From an uncultured Saprospiraceae bacterium (GTDB lineage Bacteria; Bacteroidota; Bacteroidia; Chitinophagales; Saprospiraceae): DNA of 44,350 bases. Below, piece after piece: positions 3,103-42,706 of this stretch. The stretch's first letter is position 1. The number at the start of each line of letters is the position of its first letter. The notes under the pieces were generated by a model. It saw nothing but the letters and a program-made list of their open reading frames with translations, made no database searches and was not told the DNA's origin. Location: NCBI GenBank assembly GCA_938039305.1, contig CALHUZ010000537.1, positions 1 to 44,350 on the forward strand. The letters run 5' to 3'. Made by a program: the position numbers and the translations under genes.

Positions 3103-6100
3103 ATGCGAAGTATCGCCTTTATCTTAGTACTATACCTTCTCAGTTCTTGCGTTCATTCTGTAGATGCTCAACAAGAAGCAGCGGTTGACAAGCCAAATAT
3201 TATTTTTATTCTTACCGATGATCAGCGATTTGATGCCATTGGCTATGTAGGTAATGAATTTGTCCAAACGCCTGAAATGGATCGGTTAGCCCAATCTGGG
3301 ACCTACTTTCATAATGCTGTCGTAAGCACTCCAATTTGTGCAGCCAGTCGGGCAAGCATTTTAACAGGTCTATATGAGCGTAGCCACAATTTTAATTTTC
3401 AGACAGGGAATGTACGCGAGGAGTACATGAAGAATTCTTATCCAAGATTACTTAAGGAGCATGGGTATTATACTGGTTTTTATGGAAAGTATGGTGTGCG
3501 CTATAACGAGTTGGAAAAACAGTTTGATGAATATGAGTCATATGATCGCGATAATAATTTCAAAGACAAAAGAGGTTATTTCTATAAAACAATTAATGGT
3601 GATAGTGTTCATTTAACGAGATATACTGGCCATAAGGCATTAGAATTTATAGATCAAGCTAAAAGGGGTCAACCTTTCTGTTTATCATTAAGTTTCAGCG
3701 CACCGCACGCACATGATCCAGCAGAAGACCAATATTATTGGCAAAAAGAAGTGGACCCATTATTATCTGAAACTATCATACCTGGCCCAGATTTGGGAGA
3801 GGACAAATATTTTGATGCTCAACCAAAAATTGTTAGGGATGGGTTCAACAGATTTCGATGGACGTGGAGATACGACAACCCTGAAAAATACCAACATAGT
3901 CTAAAGGGGTATTATCGGATGATATCTGGAATCGATCTGGAGATTGCAAAAATACGTAAGAAATTAGAAGAAAAAGGGCTCGACAAGAATACTGTTATTA
4001 TTCTGATGGGTGATAATGGCTACTTCTTGGGTGAGCGTCAACTTGCAGGGAAATGGCTGATGTATGACAATTCTATAAGGGTCCCTTTGATCGTATTTGA
4101 TCCGAGAATTGATCAGCATCAAGATATCACTGAGATGGCATTGAATGTTGATGTACCATCCACTATAGTCGATTTAGCAGGTATTGAAGCACCAAATACA
4201 TGGCATGGTCAAAGCTTAATGCCCATCGTTAGAAAAGAACTCAATACCCTTGGAAGAGATACGATTTTGATTGAACATATTTGGGATTTTAGCGAGATTC
4301 CACCGAGTGAAGGGGTTAGAACTAAGGATTGGAAATACTTTAGATATATAAATGACAAAACGATAGAAGAGCTTTATCATCTAAAAGATGATCCGAAAGA
4401 AATTAATAACCTTATTAAGGATTCAAAATATAAAAAGGTGGCTGCCGCCTTACGTAAAAAGTGCGATGAATTAATCAAAAAGAACAGTAATCAATATAGA
4501 ACGCCCCCTACAGAATTGACTGTTGAGTTAATTAGGGCTCCTGAGTCTGAGGTTGAAGTAGTGGATACTAAACCTGAGTTTGGGTGGACCGTACCATTGG
4601 CTTCAAAATTTCAATCTGCCTATCAAATTCTAGTAGCAACCTCTAATCCTGTCATTGACGCAAACAATGGTGATGTCTGGGATAGTGGGCAGGTACGATC
4701 CTCATCTTCCACAGACATAGAGTATGATGGTACCCCACTTGAAATCGGAAAAACATACTTTTGGAAAGTGAGGATATGGGATGAAGAGAATCGCTTAGTT
4801 GATTATTCTCAGTCGCAGCAATTCACTATAGGAGAAAGTGATGACTATATGGTCTCTACTACTAACAAGTTTATGGTCACTAGGGTCAAGCCTGTTAATT
4901 TCGAAAAGCGAGGTGATGTATATTTTATGGATTTTGGCAAGGCTGCCTTTGCTACTATAGGTTTTACTTATAAGGCTAAAAAGCGGCATACACTAACTTT
5001 CAGAATTGGGGAAATGCTGGATGTTAATGGTAATGTAAATAGAACACCCCCTGTGAAAAGTAATATCCGATATCAAGAAATAGAGGTGGAGGTGAAACCA
5101 ACGCAGACAAAGTACCAAATTCAGATTGAGCCAGTCCCTGATAAACGAATGAAAGGGCCAAGCAAGGCTATTCCTTTGCCAGAAGGATTTCCTGTGTTGC
5201 AGCCTTTTAGGTACGCGGAAGTTGAAGGTGCTACAACTGCTATAAAAGCGGAAGATTTTGAACAGCTCAGGCATACAGGTTACTGGGATGATGAAGCAAG
5301 TAGCTTTAACAGTGATAACGATACTTTGAATCAGATTTGGGAGATGTGCAGGTATTCTATCAAAGCAACCACATTTTGTGGGTTGTACATTGATGGTGAT
5401 CGAGAGCGTATACCTTATGAAGCGGACGCATATCTCAATCAGTTAAGTCACTACACTACGGATAGAGAGTATGCCATAGGGAGGCGTACGATTGAGTATT
5501 TTATGCAAAATCCAACATGGCCGACGGAGTGGCAGCAGCACGTTGCTTTACTCATTTATGCAGACTACATGTACACTAGTAATACAGAGCTGATCGAAAA
5601 GTATTATGAACCTTTAAAACATAAGACCTTATATGAATTGTCTAATGAGGATGGGTTAATCACATCTACGAAAGTCACAGAAGATTTTATGTACAAACTT
5701 GGTTTTGAACCTGGGTATAAGAAGCCTCTGACTGACATTGTAGACTGGCCAAGCCCTAATTTTATGGGAAGTGGAAATAAAGGTGCTCGTGATGGTTTTG
5801 TCTTTAAGCCTTATAGTACCGTGATAAATTCGTTTTTCTATGAGAATATGAAAATCATGGCAGAGTTTGCAAAAATCTTGGGCAAGACCCAAGAGGTGCT
5901 GGACTTTGAATTAAGAGCAGCCAAAGCTAAAAAAGCTGTAAACGAGAAGATGTTTGATAAAGAACGAGGGATCTATGTAGATGGTATCGGTACGGATCAC
6001 GCATCGCTACACGCCAATATGATGCCTTTAGCATTTGGCTTAGTACCAGAAGAGTATGTAGAGTCTGTCGTCAAGTATGTGAAGTCCCGAGGAATGGCCT

Positions 6101-6633
6101 GTAGTGTATATGGTGCTCAATTTTTGATGGATGGATTATACAATGCTGGGGAAGCTGATTATGCTTTACAATTATTAGCCAGTACATCAGAGAGAAGTTG
6201 GTATAACATGATAAGAGAGGGCTCTAGCATCAGTATGGAGGCATGGGGCTACAAGAATAAAATAAACTTGGATTGGAATCATGCCTGGGGTGCCGTACCT
6301 GCTAATATTATACCAAGAGGTTTATGGGGTATACAACCTAAGACTGCAGGCTTTGGTATTGCTAGAATTAAACCACAAATGAGCAGTTTAAAATCGAGTA
6401 CAATAGAGGTACCAACAGTCAAAGGCGTTATCAGAGGAAATTATAAATACAATGGCGCTCGCCTTCAAACTTATAAAATAGAAATACCTGCTAATATGGT
6501 GGCAGAGTTTTCACTCAATAATCTTGAAGGAAAAGATTTAATACATAATGGTGAAAAAGTACCCTCTGCTTATGAAGTTATTAGATTAGCACCAGGCAGT
6601 CATACTATTCAGCTCAAAATTAATTCGTTCTAA
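3103..6633 (+). CDS. Bimodular enzyme: N-terminal S1 sulfatase fused to a C-terminal GH78-like alpha-L-rhamnosidase module
   Basis: aa ~30-460 carry [27 protein letters not shown] (C-x-A-x-R at nt 3337-3351) and [10 protein letters not shown]. From aa ~470 come GH78 N-domain motifs: [24 protein letters not shown]. The six-hairpin region follows, with [13 protein letters not shown] (nt 5392-5430) where GH78 normally has DCPxRExxGWxGDA. Single uninterrupted 1176-aa ORF with a signal peptide. Confidence 0.85.
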
Positions 6634-6839: not shown

Positions 6840-6875
6840 ACAGGATAGTACAGGACATATCCCAAATCATCCTGT
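6840..6875 (+). promoter_or_regulatory. Site B of the recurrent direct-repeat element (ACAGGA-tagt-ACAGGA, plus an inverted TCCTGT)
   Basis: Perfect ACAGGATAGTACAGGA at 6840-6855, ending 63 nt before the ATG at 6918. An inverted unit TCCTGT lies at 6870-6875. Confidence 0.6.
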
Positions 6876-6917: not shown

Positions 6918-7757
6918 ATGTCAAAGTTGTATGTTGACAATGTACTTAAAACCCAAGGTCTAAGCCTGTTCTCTGTACGAGCTACATCTTGTAAAGAGGG
7001 CCATACTCTACTTTTTTCAACGCTTATCATCATTCTTTTTATCGCTTTCACAGGATTGATTAGTGGTTGTTCTGAGGTGTCAGATCACGAAGAGAAGGAA
7101 GAAGATATTGAGGAGGAGGAGATAGAAGAAGTGGATGATTGTATTTCTGGTCAACTATATCTTGAAAAAGATGGAGTACTCCGTGTAGATCTTAAAAATC
7201 CCAATCCAATAGATAATGATTGGAAGTTGGAAAAGACATTTCAAGGATATGAAGGAGAAGGGTATCTGATCTGGAAGGGTGATGATCACTTCAATACTCC
7301 TGGTGAAGGGGTATTGTCCTATTCAATACAAATAACCAATCCAGGGACATATCAATTTGTTTGGCGATCAAGAATTGGTGCTGGCACTAAGAACACAGAG
7401 CATAATGATTCATGGTTGAGGATATCAAATACATCAGATTTCTATGGTGAGAAGGAAAGCACAGGTGAAAGAGTGTATCCAGTAGGAAGTGGCAAATCCC
7501 CTAGTCCAGAAGGCTCAAGTAAAGATGGGTGGTTAAAGGTATATATGAATAGATTAAACGAATGGTTCTGGCGATCTACGACTAATGATAAAGATCCATT
7601 TAACGTTTTTGTCGAATTTGATGTTTCGGGAATCTATGTCATTGAGATTTCGGGGCGATCTGCATATCACGCGATTGACCAATTTGTTTTATTTGAAACA
7701 GGACAATTAATTGACCAAGCTACAACTGCGGCATACAGTGAGATAAGATGCAATTAA
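6918..7757 (+). CDS. Hypothetical surface lipoprotein; beta-rich, carbohydrate-binding-module-like (family not recognised)
   Basis: Lipobox LISGC (Cys codon 7068-7070) followed by the acidic tract SEVSDHEEKEEDIEEEEIEEVDD. The remainder is aromatic and Gly rich (GEGYLIWKGDDHF, GTYQFVWRSRIG, HNDSWLRI, WFWRSTTND), as in beta-sandwich binding modules. It is the first gene after site B. The unusually long N-region suggests the true start may lie downstream of 6918. Confidence 0.55.
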   Translation: MSKLYVDNVLKTQGLSLFSVRATSCKEGHTLLFSTLIIILFIAFTGLISGCSEVSDHEEKEEDIEEEEIEEVDDCISGQLYLEKDGVLRVDLKNPNPIDNDWKLEKTFQGYEGEGYLIWKGDDHFNTPGEGVLSYSIQITNPGTYQFVWRSRIGAGTKNTEHNDSWLRISNTSDFYGEKESTGERVYPVGSGKSPSPEGSSKDGWLKVYMNRLNEWFWRSTTNDKDPFNVFVEFDVSGIYVIEISGRSAYHAIDQFVLFETGQLIDQATTAAYSEIRCN

Positions 7758-7842: not shown

Positions 7843-10140
7843 ATGGCGTCAATCCAATGTGAAGCGATGATGAATAAAATACTCCTTGTCTCTTTCTACA
7901 GTATAGTGTTATATATGACATCGTGTGGAGATTCCAATTATAATTCCAACGACTACAAGGATTCTAACTTATCTATAGAAGAACGAGTAGAAGCACTACT
8001 TCCATTGATGTCGCTTGAGGAGAAGGTCGCACAAATGCGAATCTTTCATGCCAATATAGGTGTACGGACTGATGAAGATGGAAACTTACAACTATCTGAT
8101 AGAGTTGTTGAGAAGCTCAAATTAGGTATCGCTGGTATTAAAAATCCAGGGGAGCACCTTAGTCCAGTAGCGGCAGCAAAAATGAACAATGAATTACAGA
8201 AGTACATTATTGAAAATAATCGATGGGGGATACCAGCCTTATTTGTTACAGAATCATATAATGGGGTAGATGCTGAAGGCTGTACTAAATTTGGTAGGCC
8301 ACTTACTTCGGCGGCTTCATTTAATAGAGACTTGATCCATCGCATGTGGGATGTTGTAGGAAGAGAAGCCCGACTACGCGGAATGCATATGTGTCATTCT
8401 CCTGAAGCGGATATAGTTCGGGATCCACGGTTTGGGCGTATGAGTGAAGCGTGGGGAGAAGATACCTATCTTACTACAGAAATGGTTATCCAAGCCACTA
8501 AAGGAGTACAAGGTAATTATAAAGGATTGGGAGAGGGAACACATATCGGAGCAGTAGTAAAGCACTTTGCAGGATATGGACAGGTTTTAGGAGGATCTAA
8601 TTTTGCAGCAGTTGAAATATCAGAAAGAACCTTAATAGACGAAATATATCCACCTTTTGAAGCTGCAGTTAAAGAAGCCAGCACCTTGGGTGTAATGGCA
8701 TCTCATGGAGATCTGAATGGCATCGCAACTCATGGCAATAAAGCATTGTTAACTCACCTACTTCGGGATGAGTGGGGTTTTCTTGGGTACCTAATTTCCG
8801 ACTCCAATGATATTGCTAGATTATTCTATTTTATGAAAGTAGCAGAATCACCAGAAGCAGCAGCATTAATGGGATTAGAGGCTGGTATTGATATAGATTT
8901 GTATGCTGAAGATTCATATGCCTACCTACCAGAAATGGTCAAGTCTAATCCTGAAATTGAAGAATTAATTGACAGGTCTGTAAGAAGAGTGCTGAGGGTT
9001 AAATTTATTTTAGGGTTATTTGACAATCCGTATGTTGATGTTGCTGAAGTAGCAAAAGGCGTTCGATCTACTTCCTCTTTAGCACTTGCAAAAGAAGCTG
9101 ATTTAGAATCTATTATTTTATTAAAAAATGAAAACGAATTATTGCCTCTTAATAAAAATAGGCCAGCCAAGATCGCCCTTTTAGGCCCATTGTTACACGA
9201 ACGTACTCAATCCATGTTTGAATCCGTTGCTGGATCAAAATATACATTTACGGCGGATAGGGGATTTGCTCTAACTGATGAGCAAAAAGGAGCTCCAAAT
9301 TTGTTAGCTAGGGATCCGGAAGTCATAGCAAGATTGTTGTCCAAATCACGTCAGGCTGATGTGACAATATTGTTTTTAGGAGGTGATGAATATACCGCAA
9401 AGGAGGCATATTTTAATAATGCGGTTGGAGACCGTGCTACCATCGATCCTGTTGGGCCACAAGATGAGTTATTGGAAAAAATCAAGGCTTTGGGCAAACC
9501 TGTTATTGTAGTTTTAAAACATCGTAGAACCTTATCCATCAATACGATCTCCAAAGAGGCAGATGCGATTTTAGATACCTGGGATCTAAGTGAATACGGA
9601 GACGAGTCTACAGCAAGAATCATATTTGGGGAGACCGTTCCGTCAGGCAAACTACCTGTCACAGTACCTCGGTCGATTGGCCAGTTTCCATTTCACTATA
9701 GTATGAAGGAAATAAATTATAAAAAGGGCTACCTATTTTTGGAAGACGGTCCCATCTATCCATTTGGTTTTGGTCTCAGTTATACAACTTTTGAATATTC
9801 AGATATAGCTATATCTAGTGAAGTACTAACACCGGGAAGTGAAATAGAAGTTTCTGTCACTATTACCAATACTGGGGATGTCCGCGCAAAAGAGGTCGTT
9901 CAAATGTATATAAAAGATGAGATTGGTTCTGTTTCGAGGCCTGATAAAGAATTGAAAGGATTTGACAAAATAGAAATCGATCCGGGTGAAAGTAAAAATG
10001 TATCTTTCAAAATCACTCCCCAAATGCTGGCCTTTACTGGCCCCAGGATGGAACATATATTAGAAGCTGGAGACTATACTGTAATGGTTGGCACATCCTC
10101 CAATGAATATTTAGAAACGAAATTCAAATTAAAGAAATAA
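7843..10140 (+). CDS. GH3 beta-glycosidase (beta-glucosidase/beta-xylosidase type), lipoprotein
   Basis: GH3 motifs KHFAGYG and [10 protein letters not shown], plus the C-terminal [14 protein letters not shown] and a fibronectin-like tail. The likely true start is the Met at 7867/7870 (MNKILLV...TSCGDS). Confidence 0.9.
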
Positions 10141-13474: not shown

Positions 13475-13490
13475 AACGGACAGTACAGGA
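13475..13490 (+). promoter_or_regulatory. Site C of the recurrent direct-repeat element (AACGGA-cagt-ACAGGA)
   Basis: Ends 70 nt before the ATG at 13560. A -7-like box TATATTTT at 13511-13518 lies 20 nt downstream. An extra GATAGT lies at 13461-13466. Confidence 0.55.
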
Positions 13491-13559
13491 TAGAGTCAAT
13501 TCCTAAACTCTATATTTTTAAGGACACCATAAGATTTTCAAGAAATAGAGTTAAATCAC

Positions 13560-15470
13560 ATGAAAAGACGTTCATTCATGCACTTGTCGGCAACTGGAAG
13601 TATGGCTGTCATGCTTCCGCTAAATGCATGTCGGGGTGACCTACATGACCATGGCGATATGGAGAACTTGACGGCTTTTCAAGCTGATTCGTTAAACCTG
13701 TTGACAACATGGTGTGATGCTATGATAAGAGATCAGGTAGATAATCCAAGTGATCCTGAGCAGCATGGTGCATTGTATTGTCATGCCTGTGGACTCATAC
13801 ATGGAAGGTGTCCTGATTCTGTTTATCCATTTTTATATATGGCCGATCATACAGGAGATCAGAAATATTTGGATGCTGCTATCAAGGTGATGGAGTGGTC
13901 AGTAAATGTTGACAAACCCGATGGAAGCTGGACGGTTGTGCCTAATCCAAAATCCTGGAATGGGACAACAGTTTTTGGAGCTATCGCTTTGGGTGAAGCC
14001 TTACATCACCATGGACATGTGCTCCCTGAAGTATTGAAGAAAAAATGGGAAGAACGGCTAAAAAGAGCCATCGAATTTGTGTACAACCGGTTCGACATGA
14101 ACTTCAGCCACATCAATTATAGGTTCACGGCTATTTATGCTTTGAATTTTCTTGGTAGATATTTCAATGAAGAAAAATACATCAAGAGAAGTAGGGAATT
14201 TGCTGCTGACATACCTAAGTGGTTAACTGAGCCCAATAAACTAATTTTTGGCGAAGACAGTCCAGACGATGAAAAAAGTGCAAAGGGGCTTTACCCAGTG
14301 GACCTTGGATATAACGTTGAAGAATCATTGAATGGAGTAGTACAGTTTGCTGTATTAGAAAAAGATGAATCCCTATTAGCTCTTTTAACGAGTGCACTGA
14401 ATGGTCATCTTGAATTTATGTTGCCAGACGGCGCATGGGACAATAGTTGGGGCACACGACAAAACAAATGGACTTATTGGGGCAGTAGAACTACAGATGG
14501 TTGTCAACCAGCATTTACATTAATGGCAGATAGAAATCCTGCTTTTGGTACTGCAGCTGTTCTAAATACAGAGTTGCTACAACGATGTACAGTTAATGGC
14601 CTATTGGCGGGTGGACTTCATTATGAAAGCTATGGTGAAGTCCCTTGTATACATCATACTTTTGCACATGCAAAGAGCTTAGCCTTTGTATTAGACCACA
14701 AGGATGTTCTAAAAAAAATCAATAAAGAGATACCGATACCACGAAGCACCGATGATGGAATAAAGTATTTTCCTGAGTTGGATGTTTGGCTTGGAGCAAG
14801 AGGCCCATGGAGATGTACTGTGTCTTCCTATGACCAGGTCTGGAAAAAGAAATACTCTGTACCTGGAATTGGAGGTTCTCTCTCTGTCCTTTGGCATGAA
14901 AAAGTAGGACCTCTTTTCACTGCAAGTATGGCAGAATATATAGAAGTAGAACCTTATAATCAACAACCACAACCTGGTGAAGACTTTTGTTTGACTCCAC
15001 GTGTGGAAAGGTATGTGGGCGATACATGGTACACAAGTGCTCACGATCTTACGGCTGAGGTAAAATATATCGATACAGAGAATGCGGTTTTATTTGATGT
15101 GGATGTGGTATTGACTGATAGGGAAAAGAAATCAGCCAAAGACAATAGTGAATTTAAAATGCAATATGCCATCGGCACAGATATTACAATTATAAAAGCG
15201 ACAAGGAATAAGCCATCAACTAATGGAGATACATTGGTCTTGCCTCTGATATCGCCATCCCATGACGAAGTCAAGATGATATCCAATACTCAACTTTCAA
15301 TAAAAAAGGACAATTGTACGGTAGTCGTAGAGTCGTCGGTTCCCATGTCGATAAAGCCTACCAAAAAAAGTCGAGTTTTCAATCAAGTGCCGGGAGTAGA
15401 AGTGGTGCCAATCATGGTGGTATTTCCAAAAGATACAGTTGAAGTGTCCTGCTCGATTAGGGTAGTCTAA
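13560..15470 (+). CDS. Hypothetical Tat-signal protein; helical-repeat N-domain plus beta-rich C-domain (family not recognised)
   Basis: The N-terminus MKRRSFMHLSATGSMAVMLPLNAC has a twin-arginine motif. aa ~40-400 show paired-helix repeats with DGSW / DGAWDNSWG loops, as in (alpha/alpha)6 toroids. aa ~420-636 are beta-strand-like. A Cys/His cluster CHACGLIHGRC lies at nt 13779-13811. It lies immediately upstream (61-nt gap) of a GH78 gene, consistent with co-transcription from site C. Confidence 0.6.
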   Translation: MKRRSFMHLSATGSMAVMLPLNACRGDLHDHGDMENLTAFQADSLNLLTTWCDAMIRDQVDNPSDPEQHGALYCHACGLIHGRCPDSVYPFLYMADHTGDQKYLDAAIKVMEWSVNVDKPDGSWTVVPNPKSWNGTTVFGAIALGEALHHHGHVLPEVLKKKWEERLKRAIEFVYNRFDMNFSHINYRFTAIYALNFLGRYFNEEKYIKRSREFAADIPKWLTEPNKLIFGEDSPDDEKSAKGLYPVDLGYNVEESLNGVVQFAVLEKDESLLALLTSALNGHLEFMLPDGAWDNSWGTRQNKWTYWGSRTTDGCQPAFTLMADRNPAFGTAAVLNTELLQRCTVNGLLAGGLHYESYGEVPCIHHTFAHAKSLAFVLDHKDVLKKINKEIPIPRSTDDGIKYFPELDVWLGARGPWRCTVSSYDQVWKKKYSVPGIGGSLSVLWHEKVGPLFTASMAEYIEVEPYNQQPQPGEDFCLTPRVERYVGDTWYTSAHDLTAEVKYIDTENAVLFDVDVVLTDREKKSAKDNSEFKMQYAIGTDITIIKATRNKPSTNGDTLVLPLISPSHDEVKMISNTQLSIKKDNCTVVVESSVPMSIKPTKKSRVFNQVPGVEVVPIMVVFPKDTVEVSCSIRVV

Positions 15471-15531: not shown

Positions 15532-18399
15532 ATGAAACATATAATAAAGTCTTTTCTCCTATTGACGACTTTTCTATTGATAGGTTCTTGTGCTCATACT
15601 AACAGAGATGGTGACAACTCAGTACTTGTCTTTGAAACATTGAACTGTGAGTCACAGCAGAATCCAATGGCAATAGAGAATACTCAGCCTCGATTTTCAT
15701 GGAAAGTGAACTCGTCGGGCTACAATAAAATGCAATCAGCATATCAGATCCTCGTAGCTTCAGATCCATCCCTGCTAAATGAAGACCATGCAAATCTATG
15801 GGATTCTAAAAAAGTATCCAGCGATAAATCGATCTATAATTCATATAAAGGGGCTGCCTTAGAACCCAAGGGAATATACTGGTGGAAAGTGCGCATCTGG
15901 GATGAAAATGAAAAGGTGTCTTCATGGTCTGAGGTGCAGTCTTTTGAGATGGGCTTGATGGATGAGTCTCAGTGGAAAGACGCTAAATGGATCAGTTTAA
16001 AAAAGGATAATCGCACATCAGAGCATAGATTCAGAGAATATAAAACAGGCAAGATGGATGAACCAACTTTGGTAACCAGCCAGCCGACAGGGTATTTTAG
16101 AAATACCATTCATTCTAATAAAAAGATCGAAAAAGCGCGTGCCTATATCTGTGGATTAGGCTACTATGAACTCTATATAAATGGAGAAAAGACAGGAGAT
16201 CAGGTGCTGGACCCTGCACCGTCTAACTATGATAAACAGGCTTACTACGTCAGCTATGACGTAAGTGATCAAATCCTAAAAGGAGAGAATGCGGTTGGAA
16301 TAATAATGGGTAATGGGTTTTATGGACAAGATATTTCATGGAAAAGAAATCCTGAATCTGAGCGCGATCTTTCTTTTGGCGCCCCTTCGGTCCGACTGTT
16401 AATAGAACTTCAATATTATGACGGGACTTCTGAGTCGTATACCACTGACGATACCTGGAAAGAATCAACTGGACCTATCGTATTTGATAATATCTACGGA
16501 GGTGACACCTACGATGCTCGATACGAGATGATAGGATGGGATGAGATCGGATATGATGATAGTGAATGGGGTACTGTGAAAACCGTCATCCCGAAGCTTA
16601 CTAAGATCAGTAGCCAACAGATGCCTCCCATCCGAAAGCTAAAAGAACTATCTCCCCAAAAAGTATTCAAGTCATCGAGGGGTAATTGGGTTGTTGATTT
16701 TGGGCAAAACATCGCAGGCTGGGTACGTATCAATGTGCAAGAAGAAGAAGGTCAAGTAATACAAATGATACCGACAGAAGCGCTTACACAGAGTGGCGAT
16801 GACATCTATCCGGGATCAACAGGAGGAGGGGCTAATGGAATGAAACAACTCCTCAAATATGTATGTAAAGGATCAGAATTAGAAACTTGGGAACCCAAGT
16901 TTAGTTATCATGGATTTCGGTATGTAGAAATCACCGGTATATCATCGGCGCCAGATGCTACAACCATCAAGGCCATATTGGTAGCTAACGATGTTGAGCA
17001 TAAGGGAGACTTCGATTGTTCTGATCCACTACTAAATAAAATGCATGATATCAGTATTTGGACAATTGTAGATAATCTGCACGGCATCCCAGAGGATTGT
17101 CCTCATCGTGAAAAATGTGGTTGGTTGGGCGATGCTCATGCTTTCTGTGAGTACGCCCTGTACAATTTTGAAATGAAGACCTTCTATGAAAAATATATGG
17201 AAGATATCCGTACGCAAATGCTAATAGTGCAGGGTAATGATGGTTCGAACGTCGACTATAAAGTCCCTACGATGATAGCCCCGGGGAAGCGTACATCGTC
17301 GATAGCTAAACTGGACTGGGGCATCGCTACAATCTACTTACCCTGGTATAATTATCTCTATTATGGTGATTCTACAGTCGTCATGGAATACTACGAGGAA
17401 ATGAAAGGGCTAACCGACTATTACCTCACTTTCAAGGATGAGCGAGGTATCATTGATAATGGGATGGGGGACTGGTGCCCACCAAGGTGGGATAGAAGAA
17501 AAAACCCAAGTGCAATGGAGTGTCATCCCGTAGTCTCGGCAAATGCATACTTCAATGACATCCTCGGCATCATGCAAAAGTTTGCGATTATGAATAAAGA
17601 TGTGGACTATGCTGCTAAGATGGCGTCGGAGCAACAAGATCTCTTTGAGGCATTTAATAAAGAATACCTCTCAATTATTGACGAAACAAACTACAAGTGG
17701 TATGGTAGTCAGACGGCTACCGTAATGGCGCTACAGTTTGACATGGTTCCAGAGGAGGATAATCAAGCCGTCATAGAAGGTTTAGCTCATGATATCCAGA
17801 GCATCAAGAAAGGCCATCACTCCACAGGCATTCATGGTAATCGATATATCTATACCGTGCTGACCGCCCATGACAAGGGTGATATCGCTCATGATATCTT
17901 GACTACACCAGACTTTCCAAGTCAGACATATGTGATGAACTATGGATTTACTACATGGCCGGAGCGACAGTTTGAATGGGCAGAGGTAGACGAGCTCACT
18001 AATTCACTCAATCATCCTATGCACAGTGGTTTTGCTGCATACTTCTATGAATCATTAGTAGGGATCAAACCTCAGTATGATTCACCAGGATATAAAAGGT
18101 TCAGTGTTCACCCTCAGTTTCCTAATCAGATCCGTCACGTCACGGCTTTGATCCCTACGCCTTATGGTGACATTGACTGTAAGTGGGAAAAAGAGAAGGA
18201 TGAATTCGCTATGGACTTAAAAGTTCCATTCAATACTGTGGCTGAGGTGCGTATGTCATCACAAGAAAAGGAGACCCTTGTGATTAATGACTTGCCTTGG
18301 GCCGAATTTATAGCTGCTGAAGGTATGTCGAATACTAATGCCTCAACGATAAGTCTCGGATCAGGTAGTTACGACATTCGCTATAAGGTGTTAGACTGA
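15532..18399 (+). CDS. GH78 alpha-L-rhamnosidase
   Basis: [25 protein letters not shown], the catalytic-domain signature EDCPHREKCGWLGDAHAF, and a typical C-terminal beta domain. Signal peptide with GSC. Confidence 0.92.
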   Translation: MKHIIKSFLLLTTFLLIGSCAHTNRDGDNSVLVFETLNCESQQNPMAIENTQPRFSWKVNSSGYNKMQSAYQILVASDPSLLNEDHANLWDSKKVSSDKSIYNSYKGAALEPKGIYWWKVRIWDENEKVSSWSEVQSFEMGLMDESQWKDAKWISLKKDNRTSEHRFREYKTGKMDEPTLVTSQPTGYFRNTIHSNKKIEKARAYICGLGYYELYINGEKTGDQVLDPAPSNYDKQAYYVSYDVSDQILKGENAVGIIMGNGFYGQDISWKRNPESERDLSFGAPSVRLLIELQYYDGTSESYTTDDTWKESTGPIVFDNIYGGDTYDARYEMIGWDEIGYDDSEWGTVKTVIPKLTKISSQQMPPIRKLKELSPQKVFKSSRGNWVVDFGQNIAGWVRINVQEEEGQVIQMIPTEALTQSGDDIYPGSTGGGANGMKQLLKYVCKGSELETWEPKFSYHGFRYVEITGISSAPDATTIKAILVANDVEHKGDFDCSDPLLNKMHDISIWTIVDNLHGIPEDCPHREKCGWLGDAHAFCEYALYNFEMKTFYEKYMEDIRTQMLIVQGNDGSNVDYKVPTMIAPGKRTSSIAKLDWGIATIYLPWYNYLYYGDSTVVMEYYEEMKGLTDYYLTFKDERGIIDNGMGDWCPPRWDRRKNPSAMECHPVVSANAYFNDILGIMQKFAIMNKDVDYAAKMASEQQDLFEAFNKEYLSIIDETNYKWYGSQTATVMALQFDMVPEEDNQAVIEGLAHDIQSIKKGHHSTGIHGNRYIYTVLTAHDKGDIAHDILTTPDFPSQTYVMNYGFTTWPERQFEWAEVDELTNSLNHPMHSGFAAYFYESLVGIKPQYDSPGYKRFSVHPQFPNQIRHVTALIPTPYGDIDCKWEKEKDEFAMDLKVPFNTVAEVRMSSQEKETLVINDLPWAEFIAAEGMSNTNASTISLGSGSYDIRYKVLD

Positions 18400-24617: not shown

Positions 24618-24663
24618 CAAATATATATTTCGGCAAGTAACAAGACATCCTGTGCTGTACTGT
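24618..24663 (-). promoter_or_regulatory. Site D of the recurrent element (ACAGTA-cagc-ACAGGA on the minus strand) plus a consensus -7 box
   Basis: On the minus strand, ACAGTACAGCACAGGA occupies 24663-24648. Then 22 nt, then a perfect Bacteroidota -7 box TATATTTG (24625-24618). The ATG of susC at 24581 is 67 nt from the repeat. Confidence 0.6.
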
Positions 24664-24697: not shown

Positions 24698-25747
24698 TTA
24701 GGCAGATTGCCTATCGATAAAGTTGAATTCGTTTTGTTGAGAAGAGAGCTTTCTGGTAAGAATCATTTGTGCTGCAGAGACACCTAGTTTTTTAAAGTTT
24801 GTACTGATAACGCTTATGCCTAGTAGTTCTTTTAATGGAGTGTCATTGTATGAAATAATTCCGATATCCTCTCCCATTTTGTACGAGCTTTTACGAAGTT
24901 GAGTGATTAAGTTTATTAAGTCTTCTTCTTGGAGCGTGATATACAAATCTTTGGACTTGAATTCTATACCATCAAATATTTTAGGCAATACTTCGTAGTC
25001 AACATTGATGGACTTACAAAACTTTCTAAATCCCTTAACGATCTCTTTGGGATAAGGATAAACAACTTTCTTAGGATAAATAAGAAGTACTTTTTTATAA
25101 GTATTTAGTTGGTCTGCAATACGTGTTAAGGCGTTATAAATATCTGCTTCAAAGTCTTGATAAATTCTTCCGAAAATTTTGGAAGTATTTTTTATATCAC
25201 GGTCTAAGAGTATCAGTTTATTAGCCGGTATCTGCTCAATTACATTCAATAGATCCCGTGGGCAATCGATGTACTGAAACCGGTCGTTTTTAAAATGAGG
25301 GACTATAATGTAATAGTCATATTTTGATTGATTCGCTGTAAGTATTTTCTTCAAAATCAAAGGATCACAATAGTATATTTCAAGATCAACTTTAATATTT
25401 GTTTTGTTAAGTGCTTCCACAAATGAGTTGAAGACTTGAGTTTTATAACTACTCAACTTGTTGATCACAAAAAGCACACGTACTTCAATTGATAAATCAG
25501 TCTCAGCGATATAATATCCTTTACCTCTAACAGAGATTATTATTTTCTGATCTAAAAGAGTATTGTAAGCTTTTTTTACTGTATCTCTAGATAGGCGATG
25601 TGTTTTACTTAAGTGATTAATGGACATGATTTTATCACCTACGAACAGTTGTTCATCTCTTATACCTCTTTTTATCGCGTTAATGATCTGCTTATACTTG
25701 GGAACAGTAGAAGCTTCATCAATAGATATATAGCCGTCTTCGATCAT
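24698..25747 (-). CDS. Transcriptional regulator: GntR-type winged HTH fused to a LacI/periplasmic-binding-protein-like sugar sensor
   Basis: N-terminus VPKYKQIINAIKRGI...INHLSKTHRLSRDTVKKAYNTLLDQKIIISVRGKGYYI (GntR HTH). The C-terminal ~250 aa have an alternating beta/alpha PBP-like pattern. Clear paralog of 35506-36594. Confidence 0.8.
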   Translation of the reverse strand: MIEDGYISIDEASTVPKYKQIINAIKRGIRDEQLFVGDKIMSINHLSKTHRLSRDTVKKAYNTLLDQKIIISVRGKGYYIAETDLSIEVRVLFVINKLSSYKTQVFNSFVEALNKTNIKVDLEIYYCDPLILKKILTANQSKYDYYIIVPHFKNDRFQYIDCPRDLLNVIEQIPANKLILLDRDIKNTSKIFGRIYQDFEADIYNALTRIADQLNTYKKVLLIYPKKVVYPYPKEIVKGFRKFCKSINVDYEVLPKIFDGIEFKSKDLYITLQEEDLINLITQLRKSSYKMGEDIGIISYNDTPLKELLGISVISTNFKKLGVSAAQMILTRKLSSQQNEFNFIDRQSA

Positions 25748-28881: not shown

Positions 28882-30258
28882 CTATTTAAATTCCAACAAT
28901 AACAATGGGCTTAATGGCCCCTTCGGAATAATTTTGGGAGCATGTTTTCGAAATCCGCCATGCTCTGCTTCCCACTTAAGAACGTATCTTGAGTTGGCTT
29001 TTTCATGTGTTCTTTTGTCATAAGCAAGACGAACCCTCATATCAGGATCACTAGAAATCTTATCATATAAATCTTCTGGATATAGCTTCTGAATATTTGG
29101 CACTTCATCGGAATGTTCAAATGTGTTAAGGTCAATAATGTATTGTCCAGCATCTCCTTTTTCTGTAGTCCAATCGATAGCTAATATGCCATCATCTGAT
29201 AATCCTACAAAATTGAATTGTCCTCCTATGCTCATAAAGGCTCCTCCGTCAATAAATTTCCATCTAAAGTCCCAATCGGATATTTTTTTAGAAACCCAAA
29301 CGTCTCCAATATGCCTAGCAAGATATAATTGAGTGAGTCCTTGTTCATCATATTTAGTGTATCCGATGATGGGTTCGTCATTATTATCAAGCATCAATTT
29401 GTAACGGCTATTGTGCAAGCCTCCTTTAGATGGCGTGTTGTCGACCAGAACTTTGCTATCATCAGGTGTAAAAGGCAATGAGACGGGTTCGTTATTGATA
29501 TTTTTCCAATTTTTTAAATCAGATGTCTTAGCATAGCAAATATGATGGCTGGTTTCAACCATAGGTGTCCATCTCCACATCCAGGCAAAATGAAAGTCTC
29601 CTTTAGAGTCTTTAACCCAATGATGGTAGGCTGCTCTTGTATCGGTTTTCTCTATTCCCTCAAACAACGGTTGCTTGAGATATCTTTCCCATTTTCCTTT
29701 ATGCGGATCAAATCGATTGATCAGAATGTTTCCATTTCCACAAGACCCAGACCGGTAAGAAAAGAGTAGTTTGCCAGATTTATCATTGAAGAAACTTGGA
29801 TAAGTCACGCTCTCTTCATCGTTTCCCACCATTACGTTTAATTCTTGCATGCTGGTTACGTCGTAAGGTTTCGAGCTTCTGTAATAGGCCAGTGGGTCTA
29901 CATGTTGGTTACCGCTTACATGGATATAGCCTAATTCGTCTATTCCAAGTTTTACAGAATTGTGTGAATCCCAAATAAGCTGATTTGGCAAGCTTTTTTT
30001 TATCCATTGGTTACTATTGACATTTCTGGATGCAACAGTCATCATTCGATTCCGATCGTAGTAGACTATAAACTGAAGTTCTCCAACAGTTTTCATATCA
30101 AACCTTACTCCATTTGCTGCCCAAACAGAATCAACTTCGAGTATTTCGAGAGTAACCGGTTCATTAGTTGGATTCAACTGAGCCATCAAAACAGTTGTAG
30201 CTGAGCTGAGATAAAATATTACAATCAGTATGAATATTTCTCTATGTAAGTACTTCAT
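28882..30258 (-). CDS. BNR_4-like beta-propeller protein (GH145 / PL24-PL25-PL42-like clan candidate)
   Basis: Signal peptide, then repeated blade-like segments with His-rich motifs: FIVYYD, WDSHNSVKLGIDELGYIHVSGNQHVDPLAYYRS, AYHHW, FHFAWMWRW, SHHICYAKTSD. This matches my recollection of BNR-4 repeat proteins. No search was run. Confidence 0.55.
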   Translation of the reverse strand: MKYLHREIFILIVIFYLSSATTVLMAQLNPTNEPVTLEILEVDSVWAANGVRFDMKTVGELQFIVYYDRNRMMTVASRNVNSNQWIKKSLPNQLIWDSHNSVKLGIDELGYIHVSGNQHVDPLAYYRSSKPYDVTSMQELNVMVGNDEESVTYPSFFNDKSGKLLFSYRSGSCGNGNILINRFDPHKGKWERYLKQPLFEGIEKTDTRAAYHHWVKDSKGDFHFAWMWRWTPMVETSHHICYAKTSDLKNWKNINNEPVSLPFTPDDSKVLVDNTPSKGGLHNSRYKLMLDNNDEPIIGYTKYDEQGLTQLYLARHIGDVWVSKKISDWDFRWKFIDGGAFMSIGGQFNFVGLSDDGILAIDWTTEKGDAGQYIIDLNTFEHSDEVPNIQKLYPEDLYDKISSDPDMRVRLAYDKRTHEKANSRYVLKWEAEHGGFRKHAPKIIPKGPLSPLLLLEFK

Positions 30259-35272: not shown

Positions 35273-35415
35273 AGAAAAAATGAGCTCATATTTTTTAGGT
35301 ACTACGCAACATGTATTTACATATCTGTATTACTTGCCAGGGTAGTTGGAGGTAATAGTTAAGGAAGTACTGGTTTAAAATATTACTAGTATAACGGGAA
35401 TTAGATGAAGTAGCA

Positions 35416-35431
35416 TCCTGTACTATCCTGT
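35416..35431 (-). promoter_or_regulatory. Site E of the recurrent direct-repeat element (ACAGGA-tagt-ACAGGA on the minus strand)
   Basis: The plus strand reads TCCTGTACTATCCTGT, a perfect copy in the direction of the GH3/GH78/propeller/sulfatase operon. It lies 144 nt before the ATG at 35272, the only site that departs from the ~63-70 nt spacing. Confidence 0.55.
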
Positions 35432-35505: not shown

Positions 35506-36594
35506 TTAAATAGAATCGCGATCTATGAACCGGAATGGGTTCTTAACCATTTTATTTTCTTTATTAAGGATCATATCTGCGGCAGTTTCACCCATTTGCT
35601 TGAAATCGGTAGAAATCACGGTTATGCCTAACAGTTCTTTAAGAGGAGTTTCGTTATATGAAATGACACCGATATCCTGGCCAATTTCATATTCATTTTC
35701 TCTTATTAAATTAATTAAATTAACGAGGTCAGACTCTGTGATTGTTATAAAAAGGTCTCCCTTTTTTAATATCATATCCTCGAATATTTCTTCCAATACC
35801 TCAAACTTAAGTTGGTGTTGGTTACAAAATTTACGGAAGCCTTGAGATATTCTTCTGGGATAAGGATAGACTGATGAGGTAGGGTAGGCGATGATTAAGC
35901 GTTTGTATTTTTTAATTTTCTCCAACCCTTCGTTAAGGGCATTATAAATATCGTTTTCAAAATCCTGATAAACACCTTTAAAGCTTTTGTCACCTGATAA
36001 CTTGTTGTCAATAATCAACAGCTTTTCTTTTGGTATCTTTTCTAACTCTTCATCAATGGCACTGGAAGTACTTTTATGAGCCAAGGTTTCCGACTTAAAA
36101 TGGGGCATTATGATATAGTAGTCATAGGCATTTTGATATTTTTTCAAGAACTCAAGAAACAGACGCTCATCACAATGATAGATATTCAAATCAGTATGAG
36201 CCACCCCTCCAATTCTATTAATGAATGAATTATAGATCTGCATTTTGTAAGAACTGGGCTTATTGATCAGAATGAGTATATTGATTTTGGATATGAGCTG
36301 AGTGCGAGCCACATAAAATCCCTTTCCTCGAATCGAGGTGATAATTTTACGTTCTTTTAAAATGTTATAAGCTTTTTCAACGGTGTCCCTTGATAGATCG
36401 AAAGTCTCGCTAAGCATATTTATAGAAGGAATCTTTTGCTCCATACTTAGCCGGCCATTGGAAATATTAAAAATAGTGGAATCAACTATTTGTTGATATT
36501 TAGGTTTTCTTGAGTCTTTATCAATGCTAATGAACTTAGATACCTCCATCGGATTAAATCTTTTGCTATTGGAACTTACAATCGAAATGTACAA
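35506..36594 (-). CDS. Transcriptional regulator: GntR-type HTH fused to a LacI/PBP-like sugar sensor (paralog of 24698-25747)
   Basis: KPKYQQIVDSTIFNI...INMLSETFDLSRDTVEKAYNILKERKIITSIRGKGFYV. The C-terminus aligns by eye with the other regulator (YDYYIIMPHFK, YQDFENDIYNAL, VYPYPRRISQGFRKFC, ISYNETPLKELLGITVISTDF). The likely true start is the Met at 36549. Confidence 0.8.
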   Translation of the reverse strand: MYISIVSSNSKRFNPMEVSKFISIDKDSRKPKYQQIVDSTIFNISNGRLSMEQKIPSINMLSETFDLSRDTVEKAYNILKERKIITSIRGKGFYVARTQLISKINILILINKPSSYKMQIYNSFINRIGGVAHTDLNIYHCDERLFLEFLKKYQNAYDYYIIMPHFKSETLAHKSTSSAIDEELEKIPKEKLLIIDNKLSGDKSFKGVYQDFENDIYNALNEGLEKIKKYKRLIIAYPTSSVYPYPRRISQGFRKFCNQHQLKFEVLEEIFEDMILKKGDLFITITESDLVNLINLIRENEYEIGQDIGVISYNETPLKELLGITVISTDFKQMGETAADMILNKENKMVKNPFRFIDRDSI

Positions 36595-36638: not shown

Positions 36639-36654
36639 TCGGGATAGTACAGGA
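36639..36654 (+). promoter_or_regulatory. Site F of the recurrent direct-repeat element (TCGGGA-tagt-ACAGGA)
   Basis: Ends 70 nt before the ATG at 36724. A -7-like TTATTTTG at 36676-36683 lies 21 nt downstream. An additional GGATAGT lies at 36611-36617. The site is in the divergent region shared with regulator 35506-36594. Confidence 0.6.
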
Positions 36655-36723
36655 CAGACTAAGAGGTACTTCTATTTATTTTGGCAATCTATATATGAAA
36701 AAGGTGATTATTAAAAATTAGAT

Positions 36724-38820
36724 ATGAAAAATAAATTTAATTATGTGAACTACCTCTGGGACGATAAGAAAGCTGCGGATCTCCAAGGCGACGAGGTAGG
36801 ACTATTTCTATACAGATCTAATATATTGGGATCCGACTTAAGAATAACTAATTATGGCGGAGGGAATACCAGTTGTAAAACCATAGAAAAGGATCCGTTG
36901 ACCGCTGAAGATGTCGAAGTCATGTGGATTAAAGGGTCAGGAGGGGATATTGGTACTCTTACAAAGACAGGGATAGCTGGTTTATATACAGAAAGGTTAA
37001 GGAATCTTAAAAACACTTATCAAGGATTAGCAGATGAAGATCGCATGGTTGGTCTGTTTTACCATTGCATCTATGACTTAGACAGTAGAGCCCCTTCAAT
37101 AGATACGGCACTGCATGGATTGTTACCTTTCAAACATATTGATCATTTGCACCCAGATGCGCTCATTGCAGTGGCTGCTGCAAAGGATAGTAAAAAAGTG
37201 ACCCAGGAGATATGGGGAGATACGATGGGATGGGTCCCATGGCAGCGGCCAGGGTTTGATTTAGGGCTACAATTAGAGAAATGCCTGAATGAGCATCCTG
37301 GTATTCGTGGTATCGTTTTAGGCAGTCATGGATTATTTACTTGGGGAGACACTTCATATGAATGCTATATAAATAGCTTAGAAGTCATTGAGAGAGCTTC
37401 TGAGTATATCCAGAAGAAAATAAGCAAGAAAGAGAAAGTTTTTGGTGGGCAAAAAATACAAAGTCTACCCAAAGAAGCGCGCTTAGAAACAGCTGCGCAA
37501 CTCATGCCATTGTTGCGAGGATTGTGTTCTTCAGAAAACCGAATGATTGGTCATTTTAATGATGACGATGTGGTTCTTGAATATATCAACAGTAATGATT
37601 TGGCTCGTTTAGCTCCAATGGGTACATCATGCCCTGATCATTTCTTGAGAACGAAGATTCAACCGCTGGTTTTAGAATTAGGTACGGATGAAAACCTGAG
37701 TGATACAGTAGCCATTCTTGACAAACTTAAACCTGCTTTTGAGCAGTATAGAAAGGAATATCAAGAATACTATACCCAACATAAGCGAGCTAACAGTCCT
37801 GCGGTAAGAGATGCCAATCCGGTCATTATCATCTATCCAGGCGTCGGTATGTTTAGTTTTGCAAAAAACAAACAAACCGCTCGTGTGGCGAATGAGTTTT
37901 ATGTCAATGCAATCAATGTAATGCGTGGAGCAGAGGCTATCACTGAGTACACATCTTTGCCAAGACAAGAAGCATTTGATATCGAATATTGGTTACTGGA
38001 GGAGGCTAAACTACAGCGTATGCCTAAAGAAAAGCCCTTATCCAGGAAGGTGGCGTTGGTTACCGGAGCCGGTGGAGGTATCGGTAAGGCAATAGCTGAG
38101 AAATTGGCAGAAGAAGGAGCCAATGTTATACTAACCGACATTGATGAAGATCGATTGATTGAATCAATGAAATCATTTGGCAAAGATGTCGCAAGTTATG
38201 CAGTTTGTGATGTTACTCAATGTGAGTCAATAGCCCAAGCATTTAAAAAAGCCTGCTTAGAATATGGTGGTGTAGATATAGTTGTTCATAGCGCAGGATT
38301 AGCCATTTCAAAACCACTTGAAGATACAAGTATAGCAGATTGGGACATACTTCAGAATGTGTTGGTGAAGGGGCAATTTGTACTTGCACAACAAGCTGTT
38401 GCTATTATGCGGAAACAAGGCTTAGGAGGTGACTTCATAAGTATTGCAAGTAAGAATGGCTTAGTATCAGGGCCTAATAATGTAGGTTATGGAACTTCTA
38501 AGGCGGCGCAACAACACATGACTCGATTATTGGCTGCAGAACTCGGACAAGATAAGATAAGGGTCAATACAGTAAATCCTGATGGTGTCATAGTTGGGAG
38601 CAAAATATGGGAAGGAGCATGGGCTGAAGGACGTGCTAAGGCACATGGGATAACAGTAGAAGAGCTTCCTGCACATTACGCAAAAAGAAACTTACTTAAT
38701 GACATCATTTATCCTGAGGATATTGCTAATGGGGTGTTTTCACTTGTTGGTATATTAGATAAATCTACTGGAAACATTATAAATGTAGATGGAGGAATGG
38801 CTAATGCATTCGTACGATGA
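36724..38820 (+). CDS. rhaEW: Bifunctional L-rhamnulose-1-phosphate aldolase / short-chain dehydrogenase (lactaldehyde dehydrogenase type)
   Basis: The N-terminal class II aldolase-like part has NYGGGNTSCKT and HLHPD. The C-terminal SDR has TGAGGGIGKA and YGTSKAA. The ~700 aa size is typical of YuxG/RhaEW-type proteins. Confidence 0.85.
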   Translation: MKNKFNYVNYLWDDKKAADLQGDEVGLFLYRSNILGSDLRITNYGGGNTSCKTIEKDPLTAEDVEVMWIKGSGGDIGTLTKTGIAGLYTERLRNLKNTYQGLADEDRMVGLFYHCIYDLDSRAPSIDTALHGLLPFKHIDHLHPDALIAVAAAKDSKKVTQEIWGDTMGWVPWQRPGFDLGLQLEKCLNEHPGIRGIVLGSHGLFTWGDTSYECYINSLEVIERASEYIQKKISKKEKVFGGQKIQSLPKEARLETAAQLMPLLRGLCSSENRMIGHFNDDDVVLEYINSNDLARLAPMGTSCPDHFLRTKIQPLVLELGTDENLSDTVAILDKLKPAFEQYRKEYQEYYTQHKRANSPAVRDANPVIIIYPGVGMFSFAKNKQTARVANEFYVNAINVMRGAEAITEYTSLPRQEAFDIEYWLLEEAKLQRMPKEKPLSRKVALVTGAGGGIGKAIAEKLAEEGANVILTDIDEDRLIESMKSFGKDVASYAVCDVTQCESIAQAFKKACLEYGGVDIVVHSAGLAISKPLEDTSIADWDILQNVLVKGQFVLAQQAVAIMRKQGLGGDFISIASKNGLVSGPNNVGYGTSKAAQQHMTRLLAAELGQDKIRVNTVNPDGVIVGSKIWEGAWAEGRAKAHGITVEELPAHYAKRNLLNDIIYPEDIANGVFSLVGILDKSTGNIINVDGGMANAFVR

Positions 38821-38869
38821 TGTTTTGTCTTTACATCGCATATCTACAGAATAACATTAAAATATAGGA

Positions 38870-40150: not shown

Positions 40151-40158
40151 TTTTCACA

Positions 40159-41532: not shown

Positions 41533-41540
41533 TTATTGAT

Positions 41541-42692: not shown

Positions 42693-42706
42693 GAAACGAA
42701 TCAAAA

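Follow-up and report, generated by a model that had tools for sequence, protein, structure and literature searches.

An ortholog of the PL37 founder P29_PDnc in a Saprospiraceae ulvan locus, with a twin-arginine leader hidden in public gene models and a candidate Cys3His metal site

We analyzed a gene for a 636-aa protein within a stretch of 44,350 nt from an uncultured Saprospiraceae bacterium (positions 1 to 44,350 of contig CALHUZ010000537.1, assembly GCA_938039305.1), here referred to as the window. Judged by residue numbering, genomic context and the literature, the window protein is an ortholog of P29_PDnc of Formosa agariphila KMM 3901, founder of the CAZy family PL37. The gene is an additional ortholog in a named and biochemically studied family and not a new enzyme family. 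By analogy with the founder we regard it as probable (roughly 0.7) that the protein is a periplasmic, exo-acting uronate 4,5-dehydratase, which would rely on D248, R300 and K303 as the founder does and would prime glucuronic or iduronic acid linked to rhamnose-3-sulfate (GlcA/IdoA-Rha3S) for a GH105 enzyme. As an enzyme, one more ortholog of an already characterised founder changes little. The leads that remain are an unreported Cys3His unit, a mis-set start codon and the lack of a solved structure, and together they make the dispute about the founder, lyase versus dehydratase, cheaply testable.

The founder (CDF79930, identical to BN863_22180, WP_038530528.1; PMC6168547) has been characterised twice. 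Konasani et al. 2018 described CDF79930 as a periplasmic, endolytic and broad-spectrum lyase of ulvan, heparan sulfate and chondroitin sulfate and presented a toroid-plus-sandwich model (PMC6168547). Baumgen et al. 2021 re-characterised P29_PDnc as a dehydratase without lyase activity, called it cofactor-independent and found it conserved across bacteroidetal polysaccharide utilisation loci (PULs) for ulvan (PMC8511951). In the latter study the variants D248N, R300E and K303I were dead and Y306F was still active. The reaction was reversible with incorporation of deuterium. The product retained the glycosidic bond and was then used by P33_GH105, the substrate was generated by the sulfatase-GH78 fusion P36, and P34_GH3 provided a parallel route (PMC8511951).

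The open reading frame (ORF) in the window was confirmed as real. It runs on the + strand from an ATG at 13560 to a stop codon at 15468-15470. The features of gene and protein are:

13560..15470, + strand: PL37-family gene, ortholog of P29_PDnc, 636 aa (PMC8511951, PMC6168547)
13560..13631, + strand: twin-arginine (RR) leader with lipobox Cys24 (MKRRSF...MLPLNAC), from homolog conservation and the AlphaFold2 (AF2) model
13674..14696, + strand: predicted (alpha/alpha)6 toroid domain, residues ~39-379, from AF2 secondary structure and Foldseek matches to toroid lyases
14301..14477, + strand: catalytic-loop region with D248, R300 and K303 as well as E254, E255, D269, D290, D294 and Y306, from the founder mutants (PMC8511951)
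14757..15467, + strand: predicted C-terminal beta-sandwich domain, residues ~400-636, from the AF2 model

Nothing supports an ORF of 111 aa on the opposite strand within the gene (14709-15044, - strand), which is presumably spurious.

The start codon is set differently in public gene models. In the public record of the same contig (P0122) the gene starts at Met7 and encodes 630 aa, identical to the window protein from Met7 on. The conserved MKRRSF start (13560-13577) thus lies 18 nt upstream of the one set in these NCBI/ENA models, and the RR motif is hidden in the 630-aa model because the start is placed at Met7. The founder's ENA model CDF79930 likewise appears to start at Met7, judged from a numbering in PMC8511951 that is six lower. 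The 15-aa signal peptide of the founder reported in 2018 was predicted on CDF79930 (PMC6168547), and both founder studies relied on a gene model or a signal-peptide prediction lacking the RR leader. Public models with the Met7 start therefore hide a conserved twin-arginine leader, and published constructs and signal-peptide calls are based on a truncated model.

The same shift of six residues ties the window protein to the founder. At all eight positions that Baumgen et al. probed by mutation (D248, E254, E255, D269, D290, R300, K303 and Y306; PMC8511951) the window protein has the identical residue under the identical number. The mechanism figure of that paper gives Asp242, Arg294 and Lys297, each six lower, as counting from Met7 would give. 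Conservation was studied in two alignments. The first comprised the window protein with 31 close homologs of 53-73% identity (32 sequences), the second 134 full-length family members, mostly representatives from 50% clustering, down to ~32% identity. Founder numbering is common to 6 of the 32 close homologs, and the numbering together with Met7 was found only in the window protein. The three essential residues are almost invariant in the family (D248 in 134/134, R300 in 133/134 and K303 in 132/134 members). The proteins also agree in length class (636 aa, or 630 aa from Met7) and in a toroid-plus-sandwich architecture.

The loci resemble each other as well. Both are ulvan PULs with GH105, GH3, S1_25-GH78, GH78 and PL28 genes. 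The order is GH78-PL37-PL28 in F. agariphila, whereas it is PL37-GH78-PL28 in the window, with no GH39 or GH43 gene nearby. The PL28 protein of F. agariphila (P30_PL28) has 54.7 kDa and that of the window 319 aa. A translation of the published P36_S1_25 construct and the sulfatase domain of the window fusion are similar but not identical (~75% by eye). By its sulfatase domain, its smaller PL28 protein and its gene order the window was judged not to be F. agariphila itself. Residue correspondence with the founder, read indirectly from the numbering, the fold, the essential residues D248, R300 and K303 and the ulvan PUL context together place the window protein in PL37.

The original prediction, made from the letters alone, had presented the protein as a candidate new carbohydrate-active enzyme (CAZyme) that could not be assigned to any family. 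That failure is explained by the local searches: both the single protein and a profile of the 32 sequences gave no significant match in local Pfam, NCBIfam or PDB sequences. Two sub-threshold stretches, to GH76 (E = 0.012) and to LANCL1 (E = 1.7), were treated as noise from the toroid repeats. The local Pfam-A copy reports neither PF25840 nor PF25841 for the window protein. A search of a large protein database yielded 2850 relatives, and among the matches listed 120 of 120 carry precomputed PF25840 and PF25841. One of the relatives is a near-identical 630-aa homolog, which differs only by K602E and carries PF25840.1 and PF25841.1. A literature search for the two Pfam families found nothing. 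No strong profile match to a characterised non-CAZyme family was seen, the core of the Cys/His cluster is conserved and GH78 and sulfatase genes accompany the gene in other genomes; yet the claim of novelty fails, since the family is PL37, whose founder was characterised in 2018 and again in 2021.

The fold was modelled by AF2 on the 32-sequence alignment with a mean predicted local distance difference test (pLDDT) of 85.9 and a predicted template modelling score (pTM) of 0.86. In the model twelve main helices extend as far as residue 379, followed by residues 400-635 as a beta-rich domain. The loop motifs DGSW (residues 121-124) and DGAWDNSWG (290-298) are present and invariant or nearly so among the 32 sequences. 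Comparison of the model with the PDB by Foldseek, which had been proposed as a check, placed PL35 GAGases (8KHV, 8KHW), PL33 BT4410, PL17, PL15, dermatan sulfate epimerase 1, PL12 heparinase III, PL8 and PL21 on top (E = 7e-14 to 1e-7, TM-score ~0.5, identity 8-13%). The best 50 matches were all lyases or an epimerase. The modelled fold is that of the toroid-plus-sandwich lyases of PL8/12/15/17/21/33/35, and the heparinase II/III-like layout read from the sequence was borne out. The likeness to these families lies in the fold only, with zero Pfam, NCBIfam or PDB sequence matches to them. Sequence searches of the PDB copy used here yielded no PL37 structure, and literature searches yielded no paper on one. 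The confident model and the list of invariant residues (H365, H366, H370, D294 and E255) can guide mutagenesis.

With the proteins of known structure (PL35 8KHV/8KHW, PL33 BT4410, PL17 Alg17c, PL15 Atu3025, PL12 heparinase III, PL8 and dermatan sulfate epimerase 1) the window protein shares the two-domain fold and, as a member of PL37, the first chemical step, abstraction of the C5 proton of a uronate. Following the founder pathway, the sulfatase-GH78 fusion would leave the disaccharide GlcA/IdoA-(1,4)-Rha3S. The PL37 enzyme would act on the uronate at the non-reducing end, where H5 next to the carboxylate would be abstracted. The C4 hydroxyl would then be expelled as water in a lyase-type E1cB elimination; in the toroid-plus-sandwich lyases the leaving group is a different one. 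D248 would serve as base, R300 would neutralise the carboxylate or enolate and K303 would serve as acid, as proposed for the founder. The product delta-Rha3S would finally be hydrolysed by the GH105 enzyme encoded two genes upstream. The same logic is known from the GH154/BcGDH beta-D-glucuronate dehydratases of Bacteroides, where a saturated uronate at the non-reducing end is dehydrated so that GH88/GH105 enzymes can remove it. These are sequence-unrelated according to their authors and act on other substrates in the chondroitin pathway.

Alternatively, the protein could be a true endolytic lyase, as PL37 was first described. Acting by beta-elimination, it would then cleave Rha3S-(1,4)-GlcA/IdoA linkages of ulvan oligomers in the periplasm and might also attack heparan and chondroitin sulfate. 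In favour of this, the elimination chemistry is the same apart from the leaving group, the model has the fold of such lyases, and for the founder a Km of 0.77 mg/ml, endolytic depolymerisation and unsaturated products identified by nuclear magnetic resonance and mass spectrometry were reported (PMC6168547). However, the founder, His-tagged at the N- or the C-terminus, showed no lyase activity on ulvans of seven different origins, while a PL28 control was active (PMC8511951). Furthermore, the related toroid lyases rely on a catalytic Tyr, as part of a Tyr/His pair with an Asn neutraliser, whereas the Tyr probed in the founder is dispensable (Y306F active). The window also already encodes a PL28 enzyme and a BNR_4/GH145-like protein for depolymerisation. 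We consider an endolytic lyase unlikely.

Several points nevertheless weigh against reading the window protein as a dehydratase. The activity of the founder itself is disputed between an endolytic broad-spectrum lyase (PMC6168547) and a dehydratase without lyase activity (PMC8511951), and the coupled thiobarbituric acid assay gave a weak signal for dehydratase activity (PMC8511951). Orthology rests on residue numbering, context and literature rather than on a direct alignment with the founder. The window organism is not F. agariphila, so its specificity could differ. Finally, homologs in Firmicutes (~33% identity) stand in non-glycan contexts, and the chemistry of the family may exceed a role in ulvan degradation.

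These Firmicutes homologs come from metagenome-assembled genomes (MAGs) of Clostridia, Ruminococcaceae and Acutalibacteraceae (loci L018-L043), share ~31-36% identity with the window protein and are without signal peptide. They keep D248, R300 and K303 as well as the Cys3His set described below. In the four loci examined the neighbours were housekeeping genes (PNPase, DNA polymerase III alpha, GntR/aminotransferase, pyridoxal-kinase-like, PFL and AsnA), and no GH88/GH105, lyase or other CAZyme gene was found near the homolog.

Three stretches rich in Cys and His are located in the toroid domain:

13779..13811, + strand: C74-x2-C77-x3-H81-x2-C84 (CHACGLIHGRC, residues 74-84), beta-hairpin between helices 1 and 2, from sequence and the AF2 model
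14004..14018, + strand: HHHGH (residues 149-153), end of helix 4, conserved among close relatives only
14646..14669, + strand: C363 followed by the near-invariant H365, H366 and H370, N-terminus of the last toroid helix, from the AF2 model and family alignment

Metal binding had been suggested for CHACGLIHGRC, whose coordinates were exact (nt 13779-13811), together with the nearby HHHGH. Within the 134 family members four putative ligands are kept at 90-95%, namely C74 (126/134), C77 (120/134), H81 (125/134) and C363 (127/134). The His residues that follow C363 are kept to a similar degree (H365 in 125/134, H366 in 131/134 and H370 in 121/134). The periphery of the cluster is poorly kept (C84 in 62/134, 46%; H151 in 72/134, 54%; H153 in 39/134, 29%), and this low conservation ruled out C84 and HHHGH as family-wide metal ligands. 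Thus C74, C77 and H81 of the suggested cluster, joined by C363, stood as one conserved unit, and C84 and HHHGH did not. HHHGH is probably no family-wide functional site.

The unit is also lost as a whole. In seven representatives C77, H81 and C363 are replaced together, and in six of these C74 is replaced too, while D248, R300, K303, H365 and H366 are kept in all seven. Pairwise identity within the seven is only 32-46%, and the site is mostly intact in their nearest neighbours, which indicates that it was lost several times. Such an all-or-none pattern over independent losses is expected of a shared metal site. The retention of the cysteines in cytoplasmic Firmicutes members argues against disulfides. 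By topology of the AF2 model, the long loops with D248, D290, R300 and K303 lie on the same toroid face as C363 and the C74-x2-C77 hairpin. Conservation of this kind suggests that C74, C77, H81 and C363 form a Cys3His metal site, most likely for Zn. Since some lineages do without it, the site most likely has a structural role, in which it would anchor the helix 1-helix 2 hairpin to the final toroid helix on the catalytic face. Toroid-plus-sandwich lyases carry Mn, Zn or Ca in a His/Asp site of the beta-domain, whereas the site proposed for PL37 lies in the toroid domain.

The Cys3His unit is mentioned in neither characterisation paper (PMC6168547, PMC8511951). The predicted site is relevant to the dispute between lyase and dehydratase. 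One might go further and regard PL37 proteins as metalloenzymes in which the Cys3His metal takes part in catalysis or substrate binding, so that metal loading or N-terminal constructs would explain the discrepancy between the laboratories; we hold this to be quite unlikely.

A similar arrangement is known from LanC/LANCL1 and GH127-type proteins, which are alpha/alpha toroids with Cys/His ligands at loops or helix N-termini, as proposed here for PL37. They gave no fold match within the best 50 of Foldseek and have a different chemistry. In the non-significant phmmer alignment to human LANCL1 (13779-13905, residues 74-116; E = 1.7) H81 of GLIHG stands opposite the His of GLCHG, which we take to be a Zn ligand.

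The analogy to Cys/Zn-dependent toroid glycosidases had led to the idea of a new hydrolytic CAZyme family like GH127/GH146. A toroid fold with conserved Cys residues and the lack of matches in local Pfam, NCBIfam and PDB sequences would be in line with this. However, the family already exists as PL37 with a characterised founder, and its homologs carry precomputed Pfam families. GH127/DUF1680 gave no Pfam match, and neither GH127 nor GH146 was present among the best 50 Foldseek matches. In addition, the reported chemistry is elimination and not hydrolysis, and the glycosidic bond is retained in the founder product. This alternative has next to no probability.

The leader (MKRRSFMHL...MLPLNAC) had been recognised from the sequence as a twin-arginine leader, which is supported by the close homologs: RR-x-F is kept in 31 of 32 sequences, with R3 and F6 invariant and R4 and C24 conserved to at least 90%. 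The leader fits the Tat pattern, in which an S/T-R-R-x-F-L-K-like motif precedes a hydrophobic region and a cleavage site. Both the RR motif and the lipobox Cys are therefore under selection. In the AF2 model residues 4-26 form a helix of low confidence. Based on this conservation the window protein is probably a periplasmic lipoprotein exported by the twin-arginine translocation (Tat) system.

Across the 134 family members leaders are less uniform. A leader is absent from 77 sequences, the Firmicutes homologs examined being of this kind, an RR motif is present in 33, and ~10 of the other 24 carry a leader of the general secretory (Sec) type. Among the seven members that lack the Cys3His site, five carry an RR leader all the same. 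Sec-type leaders are found in at least 8 members with an intact site, and other members with an intact site are leaderless. Use of Tat is therefore not tied to the proposed metal site. This distribution marks Tat use as a trait of one lineage, the marine Bacteroidota branch, and the leader is no evidence of a cofactor; the earlier view that it signals export of a cofactor-loaded protein was not sustained.

These observations bear on a further alternative, in which a catalytic Zn or an Fe-S cluster bound at the Cys3His site would act as Lewis acid on the leaving C4 hydroxyl, as in IlvD/EDD, and Tat would export the protein with its cofactor preloaded. In favour of this, model topology puts the four co-conserved ligands on the catalytic face of the toroid, the one with the long loops, beside the near-invariant H365 and H366. 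Moreover, a sugar acid undergoes alpha,beta-dehydration in the reaction, and close relatives keep the RR leader. The seven site-less representatives, however, retain D248, R300, K303, H365 and H366, and RR leaders persist in five members without the site. The Sec-type leaders on members with an intact site argue against a preassembled Fe-S cluster, with which such export is incompatible. Furthermore, the founder was active without added cofactors after aerobic purification (PMC8511951), colour is mentioned in neither PMC8511951 nor PMC6168547, and Pfam/NCBIfam searches gave no homology to Fe-S sugar-acid dehydratases of the IlvD/EDD type. We regard a metal-cofactor dehydratase as very unlikely.

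The preferred reading as a dehydratase with the founder's catalytic residues is in line with the surroundings of the gene. The window represents an ulvan utilisation locus. It encodes a PL28 ulvan lyase and a GH88/GH105-type hydrolase, two GH3 proteins and three GH78 domains, of which one belongs to a fusion with a sulfatase. Further genes encode a rhamnose mutarotase, SusC/SusD, two GntR-type regulators (24698-25747 and 35506-36594) and rhamnose catabolic enzymes. Seven ORFs have sulfatase domains, including the GH78 fusion. The genes closest to the proposed pathway are:

3103..6633, + strand: sulfatase-GH78 fusion (P36_S1_25-GH78-like), which would produce the dehydratase substrate; from comparison with P36_S1_25
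7843..10140, + strand: GH3 protein (P34-like), putative alternative route for GlcA/IdoA-Rha3S (PMC8511951)
10142..11269, + strand: GH88/GH105-type unsaturated uronyl hydrolase (P33_GH105-like), which would consume the dehydratase product (PMC8511951)
13141..13455, + strand: L-rhamnose mutarotase (RhaM), conserved upstream neighbour; from domain search and synteny
15532..18399, + strand: GH78 alpha-L-rhamnosidase, 61 nt downstream of the PL37 gene; from domain search and synteny

The GH78 neighbour and the placement in an ulvan regulon had been correctly predicted. No terminator-like site was found on the + strand in the 61-nt gap, and from the gene spacing it is plausible that the PL37 and GH78 genes belong to one transcription unit. 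The arrangement RhaM-PL37-GH78 with flanking sulfatase genes was present in ~12 genomes of Flavobacteriia (genera Mariniflexile, Lutibacter, Hyunsoonleella, Maribacter, Flavobacterium and Flavicella). In a Saprospiraceae MAG a GH105 gene is located directly upstream of the PL37 gene.

A motif repeated across the locus precedes the gene, as the original prediction had noted. Its form is approximately ACAGGATAGTACAGGA with the core AGTACAGSA. Five exact copies of the core were found in the window, all of them intergenic, against 0.52 expected, and none of 100 shuffles reached five. The copies are:

6840-6858, + strand
13480..13493, + strand: ACAGTACAGGATAG, 67-80 nt upstream of the PL37 ATG, core at 13482 (78 nt upstream)
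24645-24663, - strand
35413-35426, - strand
36644-36657, + strand

Four of the five are located 60-82 nt upstream of start codons, namely those of a P35-like ORF, the PL37 gene, SusC and the rhamnose catabolic operon. In other genera, related sequences (ACAGTACAGGATAG, TAGTACAGGATAC, GAGCAGGATAG and ACACAGGACA) precede the PL37 orthologs by the same distance. The motif probably serves as operator for one of the two GntR-type regulators that the window encodes.

Two ORFs of the window had no Pfam or NCBIfam match (6918-7757, + strand, 279 aa; 42707-44122, + strand, 471 aa). Their counterparts adjoin the PL37 gene in a Saprospiraceae MAG (locus L015) with 48% and 78% identity, respectively. The 279-aa ORF matches P35 of the F. 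agariphila locus in position. A BNR_4 (PF15892) protein (28882-30258, - strand) had a below-cutoff match to the model of BT3686-type (GH145) alpha-L-rhamnosidases. We assume that it may be a candidate counterpart of the F. agariphila ulvan lyase P10_PLnc/PL40. The rhamnose catabolic operon (36724-44122, + strand), which adjoins the PUL and lies downstream of one of the motif copies, comprises an aldolase/short-chain dehydrogenase fusion, a rhizobial-type L-rhamnose isomerase, an FGGY kinase, an FMN-dependent dehydrogenase and the 471-aa protein.

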